NCBI GenBank assembly: GCA_963843335.1
Contig: CAWJKF010000006.1
Coordinates: 164,042 to 228,041 of the forward strand
Reading direction: 5' to 3'
Origin: an uncultured Chloroflexia bacterium
GTDB lineage: Bacteria; Chloroflexota; Limnocylindria; Limnocylindrales; CSP1-4
Length of the DNA: 64,000 nt
The position numbers were made by a program, and so were the translations under genes. This document shows positions 19,239 to 32,129 of this stretch, one piece after another. The first letter of the stretch is position 1. Every line of letters begins with the position of its first letter. The notes beneath the pieces are model-generated. The model made no database searches. It was given only the letters and a program-made list of their open reading frames with translations, and had not been told where the DNA came from.

Positions 19239-19700
19239 ATGAGTCAGCGAACCGAGCGGCTGGATGAGCTGCTGCGCGAGGAGATCTCCGCGATCATCGC
19301 GCGCGAGATCACCGATCCGCGCATCGGGTTCGTGACCGTGACCAAGGTGGACGTCGACCGGGAGATCAGCCACGCCAACGTGTGGGTCTCGGTCATCGGC
19401 GACCCCGCGACGCGGAAGGAATCGATCCGGGCGCTGGGCCGGGCGATGCCCTTCGTCCGTCACAGGCTCGGTCATCTGCGGCTCAAGCGCATCCCGGAGC
19501 TGCACCTGCGCGAGGATGACTCGGCCGAGCGGGGCACGCGTGTGCTCCAGATCCTCGACGACCTGGAGCATGGTGCGGAACCCGGTCCGGCCCGGGTGGG
19601 CGAGGCGCTCCCGGCACCAGCACCATTGCGGGGCATCCCCGAGCCCCACGCACCGCGCCGCCGGCGACCCCCAGTCAAGGGCCGGTCACATGGCGGCTGA
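19239..19700 (+). CDS. rbfA: Ribosome-binding factor A
   Basis: DPRIGFVTVT.V, LRLKRIPEL...D.S.ERG. Confidence 0.95.
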   Translation: MSQRTERLDELLREEISAIIAREITDPRIGFVTVTKVDVDREISHANVWVSVIGDPATRKESIRALGRAMPFVRHRLGHLRLKRIPELHLREDDSAERGTRVLQILDDLEHGAEPGPARVGEALPAPAPLRGIPEPHAPRRRRPPVKGRSHGG

Positions 19701-20730
19701 ACAGCCGCTCGTCTCGTTGACCGCGGCCGACCTCGCGTCCGTGCCGCAGGCCGTCGTCGACGGGCTGGTCGGCGCGCGCCGCGTGCTGGCCATCGGGCAC
19801 GAGAGCCCCGACGCCGATGCCTTCGGCTTCGCCCTGGGCGTCGGGCTCGCCGTGGAGCAGCTGGGCGGCTTGGCGACGATCGTGAGCAGCGACCCCGTGC
19901 CCGCCATGTACGGCTTCATGCCCGGCATCGAGCGGGTGCGGACCGATCCGGACCCCGACACCGCCTACGATCTCATCGTGGTCGGCGACGCCGGGGACCT
20001 GCCACGGGTGGGTCGGGTGGTCCGGGATCATGCGGAGCTGTTCGGTCGGGTGCCCATCATGGTCATCGACCACCATGCCTCGAACACCGGCTTCGGTGCG
20101 GTCGACTGGATCGACACGACCGCTGCCGCCGCATGCGAGATGGTGGCCCTGCTGGTGCCTCGCCTGGGGATGCCGATGGGTGCCGCGGATGGGGCGATCG
20201 CGGCGGACCTGCTGGCGGGTGTCGTCGGCGATACCGCCATGTTCCAGCATCCCAACGCCACCCCTCGCACCCTGCGCGTCGCCAGTGAGCTGCGTGCCGC
20301 AGGTGCTCCGCTCGCGGACATCGCGCGGCTGCTGTATCGCACCAAGCCCAACGAGCAGCTGCGGCTCTTTGGCCTGGTGCTGTCGCGCCTGGAGACCGCC
20401 CTCGATGGTCGCCTGGTGTGGGCGACGCTCGAGCCGGCGGACATCGTGGCATCGGGCGCCACGGTGGAGCACTCGGAGGGCATCATCGACCTGCTCGCCC
20501 AGTCCAGCTCGGCGGATGTCGCGATCCTGTTCCGGGACATGGGCGATCGGACCCGCATCAGCTCCCGCACCCGCGACGGCGGTGTCGATGCCATCGAGCT
20601 CACCCGGATGTTCGGCGGGGGAGGGCACGCTCGCGCTGCCGGCGCCACCGTGGAGCTGCCGCTCGGTCCGGCCCGGGATGCGGTCCTGGCCGCGGCGGCG
20701 GACCTCATCGACCGGTCACGGGCAGCCTGA
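19690..20730 (+). CDS. nrnA: DHH/DHHA1 phosphoesterase (nanoRNase/pAp phosphatase)
   Basis: H.SPDADA, IDHH, GDT..F, GGGHARAAG; canonical rbfA-nrnA-truB position. Confidence 0.9.
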   Translation: MAAEQPLVSLTAADLASVPQAVVDGLVGARRVLAIGHESPDADAFGFALGVGLAVEQLGGLATIVSSDPVPAMYGFMPGIERVRTDPDPDTAYDLIVVGDAGDLPRVGRVVRDHAELFGRVPIMVIDHHASNTGFGAVDWIDTTAAAACEMVALLVPRLGMPMGAADGAIAADLLAGVVGDTAMFQHPNATPRTLRVASELRAAGAPLADIARLLYRTKPNEQLRLFGLVLSRLETALDGRLVWATLEPADIVASGATVEHSEGIIDLLAQSSSADVAILFRDMGDRTRISSRTRDGGVDAIELTRMFGGGGHARAAGATVELPLGPARDAVLAAAADLIDRSRAA

Positions 20731-21730: not shown

Positions 21731-22520
21731 ATGGCCCGGCTGCTCGACGACGTCGACCATATCCCGGCAGGCGTTCGGTTCGTGGCCACCGTGGGTGTCT
21801 TCGATGGCGTGCACCTGGGACACCTGCACGTGCTCCACGCGCTGGCAGCCCTGGGGCTGGAATGTGACGCTGTGCCCATCGCGATCACGTTCGATCCCCA
21901 TCCCCAGGCAGTCGTGACCGGCACGACACCGGCCCTTATCTGCGACCCCGCCGAGAAGCTGGCCCGGATGGCCGAGGCCGGCGCGGAGGTCGTCGTGGTC
22001 CAGCGGTTCGACGAGGCGTTCCGCTCCCAGACGGCGGACGAGTTCCTCGACCGGATCGGGCGTGGGCGACAGCTGGCCGGTCTCGTCATGTCCCATGAGT
22101 CAGCGTTCGGGCGCGACCGGCAGGGCACGGTCGAGACGGTCCGTCGATTGGCTGCCGCGGAGGGCTGGCGGCTGGTGGAGGTCGACACCCTGGAGATGGA
22201 CGGTGCCCCGGTCTCCAGCTCCCGGAATCCGGGCGGCGGTCGCCGTGGGCGACCTGGAAGCTGCCGCGCGCCTGCTGGGTCGCGGGTATGCGGTCACGGG
22301 CACGATCCCGGCGGGCGGGCACGGATGCCGGGAGCTCGAGCTCACCGCAGCGTACGTGATGCCCCCTGCGGGTCGCTACGCCATCAGCGCTGCATGGCAG
22401 GGGTCGGCGACGCGCTCGGTCGTTGATGGGTCGGTGAGCGTGGACGAACGTGGGCGCCTCTGCCTCTCTGTCGGCCCGCCCGGGACAGGCGATCCGGTCC
22501 CCGTCCGGGTGGAGTTCTGA
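21731..22520 (+). CDS. ribF: FAD synthetase (FMN adenylyltransferase) with degenerate riboflavin kinase module; frameshift near 22225
   Basis: GVFDGVHLGH, TFDPHP, FGRDRQG, VSSSRIR; C-terminal part short and lacks PTAN. Confidence 0.85.
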
Positions 22521-22858
22521 GGCCTGTCGGCGCCGTCGCGCATTCCCCCCACGATCTTGCGCCGCCAGCGAACGGCAAGCGGTCGTCTGGTGCTGCCCAG
22601 GGTCGGGATCGGGCCCGAGGGGTACGTTCTTTCATCATCGGGCGAAGGATCGTCAGCCGGGACGCCCCCAGAGCTCGTGAAGCCCTCCGCTGTGGCCACG
22701 GATGTTCGCTGATGGTGAAGATCGGTACCCCATCCGGCGGCGTCGGGCACGGGCCGGCCGCAGCGTCGGAGACGGCGCGGGCACGGACCGGCCGCGGCGG
22801 CGTACCGAGGGCGGCCACGCACCGAACCTTGCGCATTCCGTGTGCATCTTGAGGGCTG

Positions 22859-22870
22859 TGCTAGACTCCG
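22859..22870 (+). promoter_or_regulatory. Extended -10 promoter of rpsO (TGcTAGACTCCG)
   Basis: Identical 12-mer to the rpsB promoter. Confidence 0.6.
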
Positions 22871-22908
22871 CGGCGACTATCGAAGGAAATGGACGGTTGG
22901 AGGACCAT

Positions 22909-23178
22909 GTGCCGCTCACGCGGGAAACGAAGGAAGGCATCATCACGGAGTACGCCACCCATGAGGGTGATACCGGCTCCCCGGAGGTTCAGGTCGCCCT
23001 GCTGACGGAGCGCATCACCGGCCTGACGGAGCATCTGCGTGCCTACCCGAAGGATCATCACTCGCGCCGCGGCCTGCTCAAGCTCGTTGGTCAGCGTCGC
23101 CGACTCCTCGCGTACCTGATGCGCAAGGACAACGCCCGGTATCGCGCCGTCATCAGCCGGCTGGGCCTGCGCCGCTAG
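22909..23178 (+). CDS. rpsO: 30S ribosomal protein S15
   Basis: [33 protein letters not shown]; GTG start with SD GGAGG. Confidence 0.98.
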
Positions 23179-23306: not shown

Positions 23307-25890
23307 ATGCCGGTTACCACACTGACCGCCGAGTACGGCGGTCGCACCCTCACCATCGAGACAGGCAGGCTTGCCCGTCTGGCCGGGGGCTCCGTCACCA
23401 TCCGCTACGGTGACACGCTGCTGCTGGGGACAGCGAACCGCTCCGAGCCCCGACCGGGCCTGGACTTCTTCCCCCTGACGGTCGACTTCGAGGAGCGGAT
23501 GTACGCCGCGGGCAAGATCCCGGGCGGCTTCATCAAGCGCGAGTCGCGCCCGTCCGAGGCGGCCATCCTGGCTGCGCGCCTGACCGACCGGCCCATCCGA
23601 CCGCTGTTCCCCGAGGGCTACAAGGACGACGTCCAGATCGTCCTGACCGTGCTCTCCACCGACCGCGAGAACGACCCCGACATCCTGGGCACCATCGCGG
23701 CATCCGCGGCGCTGACCATCAGCGAGATCCCGTTCCAGGGCCCCGTGGCGGCCGTGCGCGTCGGCCGCATCGACGGCGAGTTCGTCATCAACCCCACCTT
23801 CCAGCAGCTCGACGAGTCGGAGCTCGACCTGGTCGTCTCCGGCACCCGCGACGCGATCATGATGGTCGAGGCGGGCGCCAAGCTCCTGACCGAGGACGTG
23901 ATGGCCGAGGCCATCCTGTTCGGCCACCGCTCGCTGCAGCCGGTCATCGACCTCCAGGAGCAGCTCCAGGCGCAGGTCGGCAAGGAGAAGCGCATCCCGT
24001 TCATCGAGCCCGCCACGGACTCGGTCATCGAGTTCGTCGACGCGGTCGCGGCCGACAAGCCGCTCGTCGTGTTCGACCTCGAGACCACCAGCTGCGACGT
24101 CAAGCTCGGCGAGATCGTCGAGATCGGCGCCGTCAAGGTCCAGGGTGGCAAGGTCACCGACCGCTGGTCGACCCTCGTCAAGCCCACGCGGCCCATCGTC
24201 GGCAAGCAGCTCCATGGCATCACGGACAAGGACGTCGCGAAGGCGCCCTCGGTCGATGCGGCCGGCAAGGACTTCCTCGACTTCGCCGGCGATGCGCTCC
24301 TCGTCGGTCACAACGTGGGCTTCGACCTCGGCTTCATCCATGCCGTGACCGATGTGCGCATCGAGCAGGGTCGCTACCTCGACACGCTCGTCCTGGCACG
24401 CGAGGCATACCCGGACCTGGACGCCTACAAGCTGTCCGAGCTGGCCGAGTTCTACGGCCTGCCGGCGCCGACGCATCGGGCCCTGGCGGATGCGGAGGCG
24501 ACCGCGGCGCTGCTCATCCAGCTGGGCAACGACCTGCCGGGACGCGTCAAGGCCTACAAGACGGCCGTCGCCGCCTCCATCCGCAGCCGGGTGAACGGTG
24601 GCGACAGCGCTGCCGCGGACGCTGCGCTCGAAGCCGCCAAGGTCGAGTCGGGCTTCTCCAAGGGCCTCAGCGGCCTGCTGCACAAGAAGACCGTGCGCGA
24701 GCTGGTGCTCTCCGAGGGCGTCCGCATGGACGGCCGGGACGTGGACACCATCCGACCCATCTCGGTCGAGGTCGGGCTGCTGCCCCGCGCCCATGGCTCC
24801 GCGCTGTTCACGCGTGGTGAGACCCAGGCGCTCACGGTGGCGACGCTCGGGCCCTCGTCCGACGTCCAGCGCATCGACACCATCGGTCCCGAGGAGTCCA
24901 AGCGCTACCTCCACCACTACAACATGCCGCCCTACAGCACCGGCGAGAACAAGCTGATGCGCGGCCCCGGCCGGCGCGAGATCGGCCATGGCGCGCTCGC
25001 CGAGCGGGCGCTCATCCCGGTGCTGCCGACGCAGGAGGAGTTCCCGTACGTCATCCGCCTCGTGAGCGAGTGCGTGACGTCCAACGGCTCCACCTCGATG
25101 GCCTCGACCTGCGGCTCGACGCTGGCGCTCATGGATGCCGGTGTGCCCATCAAGGCGCCCGTCGCGGGCGCGGCCATGGGCCTCGTGACGGAGGGCGACC
25201 AGTTCGCCGTCCTGACCGACATCCTGGGCAAGGAAGACGCCTTCGGTGACATGGACTTCAAGGTCACCGGCACCCGTGACGGCATCACGGCCCTCCAGAT
25301 GGACATCAAGGTCCAGGGCATCAACGAGGCCATCATCCGGACCGGCCTGGAGAAGGCACGCATCGCGCGCCTGACCATCCTGGACAAGATGACCGACGTG
25401 GTGCCCGCACCGCGCAACGAGATGAGCTCGTTCGCACCGCGCATCACGACCATCAAGATCAACCCCGAGAAGATCCGCGACATCATCGGCAAGGGTGGCG
25501 CGATGATCCGCAAGATCCAGGAAGAGACCGGCACGGAGATCAACGTCGAGGACGATGGCAGCGTCGAGGTGGCAGCGGCCGATGGCGAGGCATCGCGCAA
25601 GGCCGTGGCCTGGATCGAGAGCCTGACCAAGGAGGTCGAGGTCGGTGGCCTCTACCTGGGCAAGGTCACCCGCATCATGGGCTTCGGCTGCCTTCGTGGA
25701 GATCATCCCCGGCAAGGAAGGCCTCGTGCGCATCGGCGAGCTCGCCGACTACCACGTGCCGACCGTCGAGGATGTCGTCCAGGTGGGTGACGAGATCATG
25801 GTCGTGGTCATGGAGATCGACCGCCAGGGTCGCGTCAACCTGTCCCGCAAGGCCGCGATGCAGCGGCACCAGGCGAAGGCGCCCGCCTGA
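23307..25890 (+). CDS. pnp: Polyribonucleotide nucleotidyltransferase with inserted DEDDh exonuclease domain (frameshift in S1 near 25690)
   Basis: [27 protein letters not shown]; [43 protein letters not shown]; KH IGKGG; S1 domain; extra ~155 aa DEDDh domain at 24060-24525. Confidence 0.97.
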
Positions 25891-26088: not shown

Positions 26089-28304
26089 GTGCTGCTGCAT
26101 GGTCGACGCGTGACCCGGGGCCTGGCGGTCACGCTGGGAGTGGCCTTCGTATGGTCGGGCGTGCTCGCCCAGCCGGCCGCGCCTGGGCTCGCGCAGGGGT
26201 CGCCCCTCCGACTTGGTGCTGCGCGTGGTGGGCCAAGCGCCACGCTCCTGGCCGATGGGCGGGTGCTCATCGCGGGCGGTCTGCGGGATGTCTCCGCGAG
26301 TGACCCGCTCCGGTCCACGGAGATCCTCGATCCAGGCAGCGGCAGCTCGACGTCCGCGGGCTCGCTCCGGGCGGGTCGCTGGAGACAGACCGCGACCAGG
26401 CTCCCGGACGGTCGGGTCCTCCTGGTGGGTGGTCTCGGATCGTCCGATACGGTGCTCCGCACTGCCGAGCTGTTCGATCCGGCAACGGGCGAGTTCACAC
26501 GGACCGGGTCCCTCCATGACGCTCGCCTCGATCACACCGCGACGCTCCTGCCGGACGGGAAGGTGGTGGTCATCGGCGGTCTGAACGGGACTTCCGATGT
26601 CCTGCCATCCGTGGAGGTGTGGGATCCGGACACGGATGGGTTCACGCGAGCAGGGCAGCTACGGGCGGTCCGCAGCCGGCACACCGCGACCCTCCTGCCC
26701 GACGGTCGGTTGCTGGTCGTCGGCGGGGACGACGAGGCGGCGAAGCCACTGGCCACGGCCGAGATGTGGACCCCGACCACCCAGCGGTTCGAGCGTGCGG
26801 GGTCCTTGGCTCAAGCCCGAGGCGGGCACACCGCATCCCTCCTGCCGGACGGTCGCGTGCTCGTCGTGGGAGGCGCGGCCGGGGAGCGCACCCTCAAGAA
26901 GGCGGAGATCTGGGACCCGAAGTCCGGGGGCTTCTCCGCGGCCGGCTCGCTCGCCCAGTCGCGCGACGTCTCCACCACCACGATGCTGCCGGATGGCCGT
27001 GTGCTCGTGATGGGCGGTTGGCACGAGCCGCAAGCGCTCGCCAGCATGGAGGTCTGGGATCCGGCGTCCAATGGCTTCTCCGCAGCGGGCGCCCTGCGAC
27101 GGGCACGCTGGAATCACACGGCGACCCTGTTGCAGGACGGCCGCGTGCTCATCGCCGGTGGCTTCGATACCGCCGGGGCCGCTCTCCGCAGCACGCAGAT
27201 CGTGGACCTCGGAGAAGAGGCGCCGACCCGCCCAGGAGCGATCCGACTCTCCCGTTCCGGACACACCGCGACGCTGCTCGGGAACGGGTCGGTCCTCGTG
27301 GCGGGTGGCGCTCGAGGTTCAGGGGTCCCCCGGGCATCCGTGGAGACATGGGATCCGATCGCGGGTGTTGCGACCGATGCACCGCCGCTCCGGGAGGCAC
27401 GCGCTGCCCAGACGGCGACCCTCCTGCCGGATGGTCGCGTGCTGGTCATCGGTGGCACGGGCGTGGCTGGGCAGCCGCTTGGCAGCACGGAGCTGCGCGA
27501 TCCGGAGACGGGCCGGTTCCAGACCGCGCAGTCGCTCACGGCGTCACGATCGGCACACACGGCCACCCTCCTGCCCGACGGCCGGGTGCTGGTCATGGGC
27601 GGGATCGGCGTCGACGGCAGGACCCTCGCCACCGCGGAGGTGTGGGACCCCGAGCAGGGTGCCTTCACGCCCACTGGCACGCTGCTCGGGCCACGCTCCA
27701 ACCACACGGCCCTCATCCTGCCCGACGGTCGGGTGCTCGTGGTGGGTGGTCAGACCACCACGGATACGGGCCAGCCGCTCGCAGTCGCGAGTGCGGAGAT
27801 CTGGGATGCGGTCACGGGTGTATTCACGTTGGCCGGGTCGCTGCCCGAGGCACGTTCGGGCGCGAGCGCGACGCTCCTGTCCGATGGACGGGTGCTGCTG
27901 GTCGGTGGCGAGGACTCCGGCAGCGCCGGTGGTGGTGCGCTGGCATCGGCCGGGGTCTGGGATCCGCGCCACGGACGCCTTCTCCAGCACAGGCTCTCTG
28001 GCAGAGGCGCGCACCGGGCATACGGCCACGCTCCTGGCTGGTGACCACGTCCTCGTCGTGGGTGGCACCGCCGCGGGCGACAGCGGAGGCACCCTCGCGT
28101 CCGCCGGAGGTGTGGGACCCGGTCACAGGGACCTTCGCATCCGCGGGCGCGATGGCTGATCCCCGAGAGGGCCACACGGCCACGCTGCTGCCGGACGGGC
28201 GGGTGCTGGTCGCCGGTGGCCACGACGACCGCGCGGCACTGGCGTCCACCGATGTGTGGGATCCGGCGACTCAGACGTTCGTCAGCTCCGCGGGCGATCG
28301 ATAG
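26089..28304 (+). CDS. Secreted kelch-repeat beta-propeller protein (14 repeats; two late frameshifts)
   Basis: Signal-peptide-like N-terminus; 14 copies of R..HTATLLPDGRVLVVGG....E.WDP. Confidence 0.88.
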
Positions 28305-30450: not shown

Positions 30451-32129
30451 ATGCCAGGGCGACCACGCACATCCACCGAACCGCTCCGGATCCTGCCGCT
30501 GGGCGGTGTGGGCGAGATCGGCAAGGCACTCACGGTCTTCGAATACGGCGACGAGATCGTCGTCATCGACTGCGGCCTTGCCTTCCCGGACGAGGAGATG
30601 TTCGGCATCGACCTCGTCATCCCGGACATCACCTATCTCAAGGAGCGCCGCCACAAGGTCAAGGCGTTCCTCATCACGCACGCCCACGAGGACCACATCG
30701 GCGGCCTGCCCTACGTGCTGCCGTCATTCCCGGGCGTGCCGGTCTACGCCTCGACCCTGGCTCGCGGCCTGCTGGGCACCAAGATCAAGGAGCACAAGCT
30801 CCGCGACAATCCGGTGCTCGCCTTCGACCCGGGTGACACCATCGACCTGGGCGTCTTCTCGGCCAGTGCCTTTCGGGTCGGTCACTCGATCCCCGATGCG
30901 ATGGGCATCTGCCTTCGAACGCCCCTTGGCAACGTCATCCATACCGGCGACTTCAAGTTCGACCAGACGCCGGTCGACGGCAAGGGCACCGACTTCTATG
31001 AGCTGGCCAAGCTCGGCAGCGAGGGCGTGCTCTGCCTGCATGTCCGACTCCACGCGAGCCGAGAGTCCGGGCTACACGCCTTCGGAGCGAACCGTCGGCG
31101 AGGCGTTCCGGGGCATCATGGAAGGCCTCGAAGGCCGGGTCATCGTCGCCACCTTCGCGAGCAACATCGCGCGCATCCAGCAGGTCTTCGACGCTGCTGG
31201 CGAGTTCGGCCGCAAGGTGACCGTCATCGGTCGCTCGATGGAGCAGAACACGCGCATCGCCTCCGACCTCGGCTACCTTCATTGGGGTCCCGGGCAGCAG
31301 GTCCCCAAGGACCGGCTCAAGGACGTCCCCGACAAGGAGATCTGCATCGCGACCACGGGCTCGCAGGGTGAGCCGATGGCGGGTCTGGCACGGATGGCGA
31401 ACCGGGACCACCGGTTCGTGGAGATCGTGCCCGGCGACACGGTCATCGTCAGCGCCAGCCCCATCCCGGGCAACGAGGAGTCGGTCGCCCGAACCATCGA
31501 CAACCTGTTCAAGGTCGGTGCCAACGTCTACTACCATGCCATCCGACACGCCCACGTGTCGGGGCACGCCAGCCAGGAGGAGCTCAAGCTGATGCTCAAC
31601 CTGACCAAGCCGAAGAGCTTCATCCCCATCCACGGCGAGTTCCGGATGCTCGTCCAGCACGGCCGGCTGGCTGCCGAGTGTGGTGTCTCGGCCGAGAACA
31701 TCTTCATCATCGAGAACGGCCAGCCCATCGAGTTCTTCCCCGATGGCCGTGTCCGACGCGGCACGCCCATCGAGGCCGGCCGGGTCTTCGTCGATGGCCT
31801 GTCCGTGGGCGAGGTCGGCGATGTCGTGCTGCGTGACCGTCGTGCGCTCGCCAACGACGGCATGTTCCTCATCGTGGTCACCGTCGACAAGCAGACCGGC
31901 AGCCTCGTGGGGAAGCCGGAGATCGTGACCCGGGGCTTCGTCGGGCGTCCCCGAGCCATCGCTCATCGCGGGTGCGACGCAGCGGGTGACGCGCGTCCTC
32001 GCCGGGCCGGGCGACCGGCACAGCGAGATCGGGCTGCTCAAGGCGCAGATCAAGGACAGCCTCTCGCAGTACCTCTACGACCAGACGCGTCGGCGTCCGA
32101 TGGTGCTGCCGGTCGTGGTCGAGGTCTGA
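30451..32129 (+). CDS. rnj: Ribonuclease J, frameshifted
   Basis: LGGVGEIGK, THAHEDHIG, HTGDFK, TGSQGEP, HVSGH, PIHGE, RRPMVLPVVVEV. Confidence 0.96.

Follow-up and report, generated by a model that had tools for sequence, protein, structure and literature searches.

A DnaQ-family exonuclease domain inserted in the single polynucleotide phosphorylase of three Limnocylindria families

Organization of the rpsO-pnp locus

The window under analysis, i.e. the whole stretch of 64,000 nucleotides from an uncultured Chloroflexia bacterium, includes an operon of translation and RNA genes in which, according to Pfam, the gene for ribosomal protein S15 (rpsO) lies directly upstream of pnp. The pnp product is ordered as RNase PH-like domain 1 (PH1), a DnaQ-family DEDDh exonuclease (aa 253-405), three helices, RNase PH-like domain 2 (PH2), KH and S1. 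The features are as follows:

22909..23178, + strand: rpsO (S15); Ribosomal_S15 E 5.9e-36, aa 77-157 of ORF 22702..23178
23307..25890, + strand: pnp with inserted exonuclease domain (Pfam, PDB alignment, NCBIfam)
23307..23996, + strand: RNase PH-like domain 1, aa 1-230 (Pfam RNase_PH and RNase_PH_C; solved PNPases align over aa 7-253)
23997..24062, + strand: N-terminal rest of the helical linker, aa 231-252, with helix 238-248 (AF2 pLDDT 84-94)
24063..24521, + strand: DnaQ-family DEDDh 3'-5' exonuclease insert, aa 253-405 (PF00929, TIGR00573, PDB 2p1j)
24075-24077, 24081-24083, 24324-24326, 24474-24476 and 24489-24491, + strand: insert catalytic codons for D257, E259, D340, H390 and D395, respectively
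24522..24716, + strand: post-exonuclease helical segment, aa 406-470 (AF2 pLDDT 88-96)
24717..25406, + strand: RNase PH-like domain 2 with the phosphorolytic site, aa 471-700 (Pfam RNase_PH, best stretch aa 482-614)
25407..25631, + strand: KH domain, aa 701-775 (KH_1 E 1.2e-11, aa 714-771)
25632..25890, + strand: S1 domain, in two frames (Pfam S1 E 4.2e-12 on frame 25645..25890)

The start of rpsO is approximate, a GTG inside ORF 22702..23178 having been taken. The main pnp frame is ORF 23307..25790 (+ strand, 827 aa). The equivalog cut-off of TIGR03591 (polynuc_phos) was passed with 886.8 bits vs 525, the match coming in two stretches because the insert interrupts it; the G+C content is nearly flat, with 0.67-0.69 in the insert vs ~0.70. 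Five genomes of the fused lineage were checked, and each has exactly three RNase_PH matches, two of them in pnp and one in a frame of the size of rph; the fused gene is the sole pnp in all five. The assignment to the native rpsO-pnp locus made in an earlier note on this DNA is thereby upheld.

Elsewhere in this region, an ORF without any Pfam family (22062-22520, in another frame) lies beside ribF, and no Flavokinase (PF01687) match was obtained in the window's own genome.

Domain structure of the pnp product

Pfam analysis of the 827-aa ORF returned two RNase_PH matches (E 3.8e-52), RNase_PH_C, RNase_T (PF00929) and KH_1. The PF00929 match covers aa 254-403 (E 1.5e-28, 100.9 bits vs a cut-off of 24), and the same insert passes TIGR00573 (dnaq) with 77.9 bits, the cut-off being 71.5. 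The earlier note had described an exonuclease domain between PH1 and PH2 joined at both ends in an unbroken frame; both RNase_PH matches are on the same ORF as PF00929 and the two junctions fall inside it, in full agreement with that description.

When compared to solved PNPases, the PH1 alignment stops at aa ~247-253 and restarts at aa ~457, therefore ~204 residues stand in place of the canonical ~48. Of PF03726, the PNPase helical domain, no more than the final 23 positions (59-81 of 81) match the product, at aa 456-478, with 18.3 bits vs a cut-off of 24.6. The AF2 model has helices at 238-248, 392-426, 434-448 and 452-470 around the insert; the segment of aa 406-470 is made up of an extension of helix 392-426 and of the two following helices, the last of which (452-470) corresponds to the terminal part of the helical domain in canonical enzymes. 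The exonuclease and its adjoining helices were modeled with pLDDT 85-96, while the PH cores of this model are poor (pLDDT <50 at aa 47-94 and 489-561); when the complete model was searched with Foldseek, PNPases were the only PDB structures obtained, and this result carries no information on the orientation of the insert.

An intein or mobile insertion was also considered and rejected, as RNase_T is the only Pfam match within aa 230-470; the same Pfam library detected an intein in the DinG of another genome (L025).

Relatives of the insert

The best PDB match of the insert was 2p1j, the PolC-type exonuclease of T. maritima (E 8.3e-27), and its PDB relatives comprise PolC (2p1j and 9qpc), DnaQ, ExoX, Cas2-DEDDh and epsilon; RNase T and Orn were absent among the 11 PDB sequences found at E <= 0.001 with the insert as query. 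A similar picture was obtained with NCBIfam, the best 25 of 29 matches being of PolC, DinG, DnaQ or exonuclease X types; among the matches are PolC, DinG and PRK07883, the last of the type that joins an exonuclease to GIY-YIG. The insert is thus nearest to the PolC, DinG and DnaQ types and not to RNase T/Orn, which calls for caution as to whether RNA or DNA is the substrate. According to Pfam, the fused PNPase has neither DEAD_2 nor Helicase_C_2.

Distribution and origin of the insertion

A junction query spanning PH1 and the insert (aa 190-310) was used to follow the fusion among the families of the class Limnocylindria, labeled here f1 to f5. Matches over its full length were obtained in 131 of the 133 genomes sampled from three families (f1 60/60, f2 7/7, f4 64/66), in none of 67 genomes of the other two (f3 0/66, f5 0/1) and in none of 355 genomes from other Chloroflexota classes. 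The idea that all of the class, or all of the phylum, has the fusion is thereby rejected, since f3 and f5 have a canonical pnp and a separate exonuclease-helicase of ~890 aa. In a search of 5.8 billion proteins the best 120 of 1469 hits all had PF00929 together with PNPase domains; the Atlas clusters have Chloroflexota as their commonest phylum, and the best loci in named genomes (80/80) belong to Limnocylindria or Chloroflexota bins, save three that carry unusual labels and lie on contigs of 2-16 kb.

By tblastn, PH1, exonuclease, PH2 and KH are colinear on one strand in all 21 loci fetched from f1, f2 and f4, and in 18 of them a short query for the linker gave a match as well; 20 loci are in a single frame and one (L050) has frame breaks. 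These colinear loci, the independent assemblies from which they come and the end-to-end junction matches rule out a chimeric assembly, so that the earlier question of whether homologues share the architecture is answered positively.

Outside the class, PNPase parts were found beside the exonuclease in none of the 20 best exonuclease loci. Pfam analysis of ten of these gave five DinG-like proteins (one with an intein), one UvrD with an inserted exonuclease, three proteins of the exonuclease-GIY-YIG-UVR type and one with RNase_T only. In the tree of the exonuclease domains, all 22 inserts fall together in a single clade (support 99/97), apart from the DinG exonucleases of the same class, with the UvrD helicase carrying an inserted exonuclease (L023) among the nearest neighbors; this is the phylogeny that the earlier note had proposed as a check. 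A tree of the PNPase core without the insert columns, rooted on 8 out-of-class PNPases, places the fused f1, f2 and f4 (99) as sister to the canonical f3 and f5 (99). As the two trees agree, there was a single insertion followed by vertical inheritance. The event would have taken place in the common ancestor of the three families, in the alpha-helical linker between the PH domains, the middle of which would have been replaced by the incoming exonuclease domain. Forcing the insert together with the class's own DinG exonucleases costs 14.3 lnL (p-AU 0.063); a derivation from those enzymes is thus not favored by the tree, although the AU test does not reject it.

Conservation and selection

The ExoI D and E, the ExoII D and the ExoIII H-x4-D are complete in the insert, as the earlier note had read them. 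All five DEDDh residues (D257, E259, D340, H390, D395) are unchanged in each of the 99 aligned homologues and in all 21 sequences taken from f1, f2 and f4, and H335 is kept likewise, even though the identity of the insert falls to 38-48% across these sequences. Its dN/dS values were 0.04-0.27 in seven of eight pairs, like those of the PH domains, and 0.42 in the pair formed by the window and L004; the helical segment of aa 406-470 gave higher values (0.14-0.76). The insert is under purifying selection.

In PH2, residues R556, R557, H561, S595, T596, S597, D644, D650 and K652 are invariant in 99/99 sequences, in keeping with the PNPase motifs having been described as intact; we take these residues to be the active site, with phosphate and metal binding as in the E. 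coli enzyme. Two working 3'-5' exonuclease sites per protomer, phosphorolytic in PH2 and hydrolytic in the DEDDh domain, are accordingly what the conserved residues predict, and we hold this with good confidence; a trimer would then have three of each.

Other nucleases in the class

RNase II/R was not found by its RNB domain in any of 61 genomes of the class, and none of five genomes had RNase D above the cut-off or RNase E/G; RNase J was present in all five. The DinG helicase domain is rare in the fused families (f1 1/44, f2 0/5, f4 2/49; no PF13307 match in the window's own genome) and present in the unfused ones (f3 21/21, f5 1/1). As a single evolutionary event underlies this complementarity, it amounts to a correlation with n=1. 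DHHA1 was matched in 61/61 genomes of the class, in most cases three times, with pnp fused or not.

Possible role of the inserted exonuclease

Taken as a whole, we consider it probable that the fused gene is the organism's single orthologous pnp, into which a domain of the DnaQ/PolC/DinG type was inserted once. The PNPase helical domain, according to the structural report of Nurmohamed 2009 (PMC2723993), borders a side pore opening onto the active site and influences catalysis. By analogy with that published position, the hydrolytic domains may sit on the ring face opposite to KH/S1, beside the side pore leading to the PH2 site. The most likely role, which we favor with modest confidence, would be the hydrolytic trimming of RNA 3' ends, or of fragments that escape from the phosphorolytic site or that it is unable to degrade to the end; for RNase II/R, RNase D and DinG-type exonucleases, the searches in this lineage were negative.

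More tentatively, a ring of six sites and two chemistries can be envisaged. RNA would enter through KH/S1 and be phosphorolysed, and the three DEDDh domains at the side pores of the opposite face would take stalled or exiting 3' ends, allowing a phosphate-independent clearance and covering the RNA quality control that is done elsewhere by ExoDinG, which this lineage would have lost; such a ring may be regarded as a covalent, independently evolved counterpart of the exosome with Rrp6. The comparison with the exosome, already made in the earlier note, is an analogy only, in the possible way of working and not in ancestry.

The main alternative is that the insert acts on DNA and not on RNA, the fused enzyme replacing a DinG-type exonuclease-helicase in the processing or repair of DNA 3' ends, with the PNPase part as a scaffold or a DNA phosphorylase. 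We regard this as possible and rather doubtful. Reports exist of DNA-related activities in bacterial PNPases, the best named relatives of the insert (PolC, DnaQ, ExoX, Cas2-DEDDh, epsilon) are DNA exonucleases, a UvrD helicase is among the carriers of its tree neighbors, and the DinG helicase domain is distributed in the complementary manner given above. On the other hand, the host protein is the sole PNPase, encoded next to rpsO in an operon of translation and RNA genes, and the insert does not group with the DinG exonucleases of the class in the tree, although the AU value already mentioned does not reject such a grouping. Moreover, DinG-type exonucleases degrade RNA too: S. aureus ExoDinG is described as active on ssDNA and ssRNA (PMC11981726), and Listeria DinG as a 3'-5' exoribonuclease (PMC12774634).

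A nanoRNase that would finish the oligonucleotides of 2-5 nt left by PNPase, an idea put forward in the earlier note, has been weakened and now seems unlikely to us. The side pore beside the helical domain would suit it, and most of the fused genomes have a single PF00929 match, so that no Orn-like gene appears in them. Nevertheless, an NrnA-like gene with DHH/DHHA1 lies in the same operon as pnp (window 19516-20730), which speaks against the idea, and DHHA1 occurs in fused and unfused genomes alike, hence without a complementary pattern; nor is the insert nearest to Orn or RNase T.

An exonuclease domain that is catalytically idle, serving as a nucleic acid-binding, structural or regulatory module of the helical domain, is improbable. 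Pseudo-exonuclease domains do occur in DinG-like proteins (pExoDinG, PMC11981726), and the influence of the helical domain on catalysis would be compatible with such a module; against this stand the strict conservation of the five catalytic residues and H335 at the low identities given above and dN/dS values as low as those of the PH domains.

Comparison to known systems

Few RNA-decay enzymes have been studied as much as PNPase, and the layout of its domains is taken to be fixed. The fused protein shares with canonical bacterial PNPase the order PH1, PH2, KH and S1, with a probable helical linker between the PH domains, the rpsO-pnp synteny and the PH2 motifs, and it matches the PNPases of the PDB with E 8.7e-201 to ~1e-155, the structures from E. 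coli, Caulobacter, Streptomyces and Staphylococcus showing ~55-65% identity in the alignments listed. It differs in the helical domain, which has ~48 residues in the canonical enzyme vs ~204 here (the DEDDh domain plus extra helices), and in length, as canonical pnp frames in the phylum are of 737-835 aa (running slightly past the gene) and the fused product is of ~860 aa.

The insert is similar to the exonuclease domains of PolC, ExoDinG and the exo-GIY-YIG proteins: it passes the PF00929 and TIGR00573 cut-offs with a complete DEDDh set, and its identity to such domains in the ExoDinG, UvrD-exo and exo-GIY-YIG proteins from other Chloroflexota is 36-46%. In contrast to these, it is embedded within a PNPase instead of being N-terminal to a helicase or polymerase, has no adjoining helicase, polymerase or GIY-YIG part, and forms its own clade.

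In the eukaryotic exosome the PH ring is catalytically inert and the nucleases Rrp6 and Rrp44 are bound non-covalently, Rrp6 being a DEDDy enzyme similar to RNase D. What is shared is a PH-domain ring with a hydrolytic 3'-5' exonuclease (a predicted one in the present case), whereas the predicted Limnocylindria ring keeps its phosphorolytic motifs and has the DEDDh domain in the same chain. In bacteria, the Caulobacter RNA degradosome reportedly holds PNPase and RNase D as separate proteins on an RNase E scaffold; this also pairs PNPase with an exonuclease of the DEDD superfamily, but here the nucleases are fused and RNase E/G was not found in the five genomes searched. A literature search, mainly of sources outside the subscription journals, found no description of a PNPase-DEDD fusion, in line with the initial statement that no characterized PNPase with such an insert was known.

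The sole pnp of a large and environmentally abundant clade encodes a second nuclease domain with full catalytic residues, at the only place in the ring adjoining the side pore of the active site. If both sites work, the coupling of phosphorolytic and hydrolytic 3'-5' decay becomes testable, with a bearing on the limits of PNPase at 3' ends that are short or blocked and on why exosome-like rings recruit hydrolytic partners.

Frameshift in the S1 domain

The gene had been described as encoding one product of ~860 aa at 23307-25890. The length stands once an extra base is discounted; the single open frame does not, as S1 is shifted. One extra C in a CC run (25691/25692, + strand) breaks the frame inside S1, as seen by comparison with L061 (94% nucleotide identity, 1 gap in 300). 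The closest relatives lose the frame elsewhere, at aa ~516, ~580 and ~739, one relative (P0002) is intact with 860 aa, and rnj is likewise split in the same window. For these reasons, the frameshift is most likely an assembly indel and not the mark of a pseudogene; differing break sites plus one intact relative fit random indel errors, therefore the fusion itself is real. It is very improbable that faulty assembly created the fusion seen in the window, or that pnp is a pseudogene in this one genome: the S1 frameshift, the split rnj and a genome 72.95% complete by marker genes would fit it, but both insert junctions are in one frame and the architecture recurs colinearly in nearly all sampled genomes of the three families, from many independent assemblies.

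Automatic annotation conceals the exonuclease insert in this PNPase. The naming of the pnp product differs by source, being either 'polyribonucleotide nucleotidyltransferase' or 'DNA polymerase III epsilon subunit family exonuclease'.

Domain architecture of the fused PNPase

The following features lie in the window:

19516-20730, + strand: DHH and DHHA1 domain protein, weakly matching NrnA, in the pnp operon and flanked by rbfA and truB
21731-22520, + strand: ribF ORF with an overlapping ORF in another frame, the ribF ORF carrying the FAD synthetase domain alone
23307-25790, + strand: main pnp ORF, 827 aa
25645-25890, + strand: S1 domain in a second frame (E 4.2e-12)
26089-28044, + strand: large Kelch-repeat beta-propeller protein, 651 aa (Kelch_4, E 6.2e-69), with overlapping frames to ~28300
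~30487-31945, + strand: RNase J (TIGR00649), split in two frames with the break near 31041 (model positions 2-188 vs 187-486)

In the main pnp ORF Pfam detected RNase_PH twice (E 3.8e-52), RNase_PH_C, KH_1 and, at aa 254-403, RNase_T (PF00929, E 1.5e-28). The PNPase helical-domain model was matched by its final 23 positions alone, at aa 456-478. With TIGR03591, the NCBIfam equivalog for PNPase (cut-off 525), the whole protein reached 886.8 bits, in two stretches; with TIGR00573 'dnaq' (cut-off 71.5) the insert alone (aa 253-405) reached 77.9 bits. Alignment with solved PNPases ends at aa ~247-253 and restarts at aa ~457, thus ~204 residues stand in place of ~48 of the helical domain. The closest solved relative of the insert is the T. 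maritima PolC-type exonuclease 2p1j (E 8.3e-27); its 11 PDB matches also included PolC, DinG, DnaQ, Cas2-DEDDh, exonuclease X and epsilon, with neither RNase T nor Orn among them. Membership tests identified the protein as a PNPase and the insert as a DnaQ-family DEDDh exonuclease; ExoDinG (DinG-type exonuclease-helicase) was discarded since the helicase is absent, RNase T/Orn since neither is the nearest relative of the insert, and the insert is not an intein. The DEDDh domain that the earlier note had placed inside the PNPase is confirmed by the PF00929 match amid two RNase_PH domains and by the five catalytic residues (D257, E259, D340, H390 and D395), invariant in 99/99 close homologues. 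The literature searched, which covered few subscription journals, yielded no account of a PNPase that has a DEDD exonuclease built into it; the fused proteins are already in public databases, under routine names.

Locus and frame integrity

The fused pnp stands at its native rpsO-pnp locus, also as first described, surrounded by proS, nusA, infB, rbfA, the DHH/DHHA1 gene, truB, ribF and rpsO, and the G+C content is uniform across the insert. The equivalent of the DHH/DHHA1 gene adjoins pnp in relatives both with and without the fusion. No Pfam family was assigned to the ORF overlapping ribF, and the window's own genome gave no match to the flavokinase domain PF01687; the cause could be a further frameshift, or the enzyme may be monofunctional. 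Directly downstream of pnp lies the Kelch protein, whose repeat motif was seen in the neighbouring frame too.

The earlier reading of 23307-25890 as a single frame holds for the insert and fails at S1, where a frame shift had been missed: compared with a fetched locus 94% identical in DNA (L061), the window carries an extra C in the CC run at 25691/25692, the sole gap in 300 bases. Among the closest protein relatives, P0002 (860 aa) has an intact frame and three others lose it at different points, P0001 after aa ~516, P0003 ~580 and P0004 ~739. With RNase J, 5 kb downstream of pnp, another housekeeping gene of the window is broken, and its split fits assembly indel errors; the genome consists of 21 contigs with a marker completeness of only 72.95%. 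We read the S1 frameshift as probably one of scattered assembly indel errors rather than the mark of a pseudogene. In the single-contig genome G152 (family f1, locus L050) the fused pnp changes frame within PH1 and before PH2 by tblastn, and these changes likewise look like assembly indels.

Distribution of the fusion

A protein search with aa 225-480 against 5.8 billion proteins (8000 candidates scored) gave 1469 matches at E <= 1e-3. In all of the best 120, PF00929 was joined to PNPase domains; most of these were 859-870 aa long, with source labels Chloroflexota or 'Candidatus Limnocylindrales'. In the ESM Atlas, clusters of 109-164 members combine RNase_PH and RNase_T.

Whole genomes of the five families of the class Limnocylindria (f1 to f5) were searched with a junction-spanning query (aa 190-310), counted when matched end to end. 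It was found in 60/60 genomes of f1, 7/7 of f2 and 64/66 of f4, and in 0/66 of f3 and 0/1 of f5; six of the 66 f3 genomes matched the exonuclease half alone. A phylum sample gave 23/23, 4/4 and 16/16 for f1, f2 and f4, and 0/355 for genomes of other classes. Genomes flagged as unpublished enter some of the counts, but no sequence was taken from them. Searched as separate parts by tblastn, PH1, exonuclease, PH2 and KH were colinear on one strand in 21/21 fetched loci of f1, f2 and f4, in a single frame in 20 (the exception being L050), and a short linker query matched in 18/21. Families f3 and f5 carry a canonical pnp (open frames of 737-749 aa), their exonuclease match lying in separate ~890-aa frames. 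The best 80 loci, taking one genome per species, hold the whole insert at 45-88% identity and are titled as Limnocylindria, Limnocylindrales or Chloroflexota bins, except for three oddly labelled contigs of 2-16 kb, which we take for mis-binned. The fusion is real and conserved.

No PNPase parts stood beside the exonuclease at the best 20 out-of-class exonuclease matches; ten of them, scanned with Pfam, comprised five DinG-like proteins, one UvrD with an inserted exonuclease, three proteins joining exonuclease, GIY-YIG and UVR, and one RNase_T alone. In G342, a genome of another class, an ExoDinG-like protein (L025:28-4074) is broken by an intein (Intein_splicing, E 4.7e-19) that includes a LAGLIDADG domain.

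Origin of the insert

A tree of 50 exonuclease domains grouped the 22 PNPase inserts in one clade (support 99/97); nearest to it were an exonuclease embedded in a UvrD, a stand-alone exonuclease and a protein of 537 aa. Among the nearest relatives of the insert is the RNase_T domain of a UvrD-type helicase (L023:1280-4780, genome G214 of another class), inserted at aa 761-911 of 1167 so that it separates the N-terminal from the C-terminal part of the helicase. Derivation from the class's own DinG exonucleases is disfavoured, as these form a separate clade and forcing the inserts together with them costs 14.3 log-likelihood units, although the AU test does not reject it (p-AU 0.063). A PNPase-core tree, with insert columns removed and rooted on eight out-of-class PNPases (quick search, SH-aLRT support only), recovered the class with support 95, canonical f3+f5 with 99 and fused f1+f2+f4 with 99. 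A single insertion on the f1+f2+f4 stem followed by vertical inheritance explains both trees.

Selection and proposed function

The same five DEDDh residues are kept in 21/21 sequences across f1, f2 and f4, in which insert identity falls to 38-48%. The PH2 residues, too, are invariant in the 99 close homologues. Nei-Gojobori dN/dS of the exonuclease was 0.04-0.27 in seven pairs and 0.42 between the window and locus L004, about equal to that of the PH domains, showing purifying selection on the insert; the helices after it evolve faster (0.14-0.76). An AlphaFold2 model (mean pLDDT 72) gave 85-96 for the exonuclease and its flanking helices, which suggests a fixed module and not a loose tether; two PH-core stretches fell below 50, probably because the alignment is shallow in diversity.

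The helical domain is described as dynamic, lying on the torus face opposite S1/KH and contributing to a side pore by which the active site is reached (PMC2723993); in human PNPase one of its lysines contacts RNA near the active site (PMC12685370). We infer that three hydrolytic DEDDh domains would sit beside the side pores, opposite KH/S1, which would feed RNA to a ring retaining its phosphorolytic sites; the DEDDh domains would act on 3' ends or fragments let go or left unfinished at the phosphorolytic site, trimming them. The fused enzyme may work like the exosome with Rrp6, or like the Caulobacter degradosome, which reportedly holds PNPase and RNase D in one assembly; in both of these the partners are separate proteins, and here they form one chain.

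The insert is probably active. S. aureus ExoDinG is described as degrading both ssDNA and ssRNA (PMC11981726), and Listeria DinG as a 3'-5' exoribonuclease that clears unprocessed rRNA (PMC12774634). Members of the insert's family can thus use RNA. For the insert itself RNA is somewhat more likely than not to be the substrate; DNA is the main alternative and the less likely one. The nanoRNA finishing first proposed for the insert is weakened: DHHA1 matches occur in 61/61 genomes whatever the family, usually three per genome, and the pnp operon holds the NrnA-like gene, which argues against the insert being needed as a nanoRNase.

In five of five genomes of f1, f2 and f4 there is no pnp besides the fused one: RNase_PH matched three times and no more, twice in pnp and once in a frame the size of rph. 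RNase II/R (RNB) was found in 0/61 class genomes (positive control: 11/14 known genomes); among five good genomes, RNase D above cut-off and RNase E/G were each found in 0/5, and RNase J in 5/5, 2-6 kb from pnp. The DinG/XPD helicase domain PF13307 was present in 21/21 genomes of f3 and 1/1 of f5, and rare in f1 (1/44, a different 2041-aa frame), f2 (0/5) and f4 (2/49, a 107-aa contig-edge frame and a weak match, E 8.2e-7); the window's own genome gave no match. The fused-PNPase lineages are therefore those without ExoDinG, a pattern that counts as one evolutionary event and so as a lead, not a statistic. The only other PF00929 match in the window's own genome lies at C4:72959-73450 (L002:1387-2019), in a frame of 211 aa with a further match, at 31.8 bits, to the Rv2179c-like 3'-5' exoribonuclease family.
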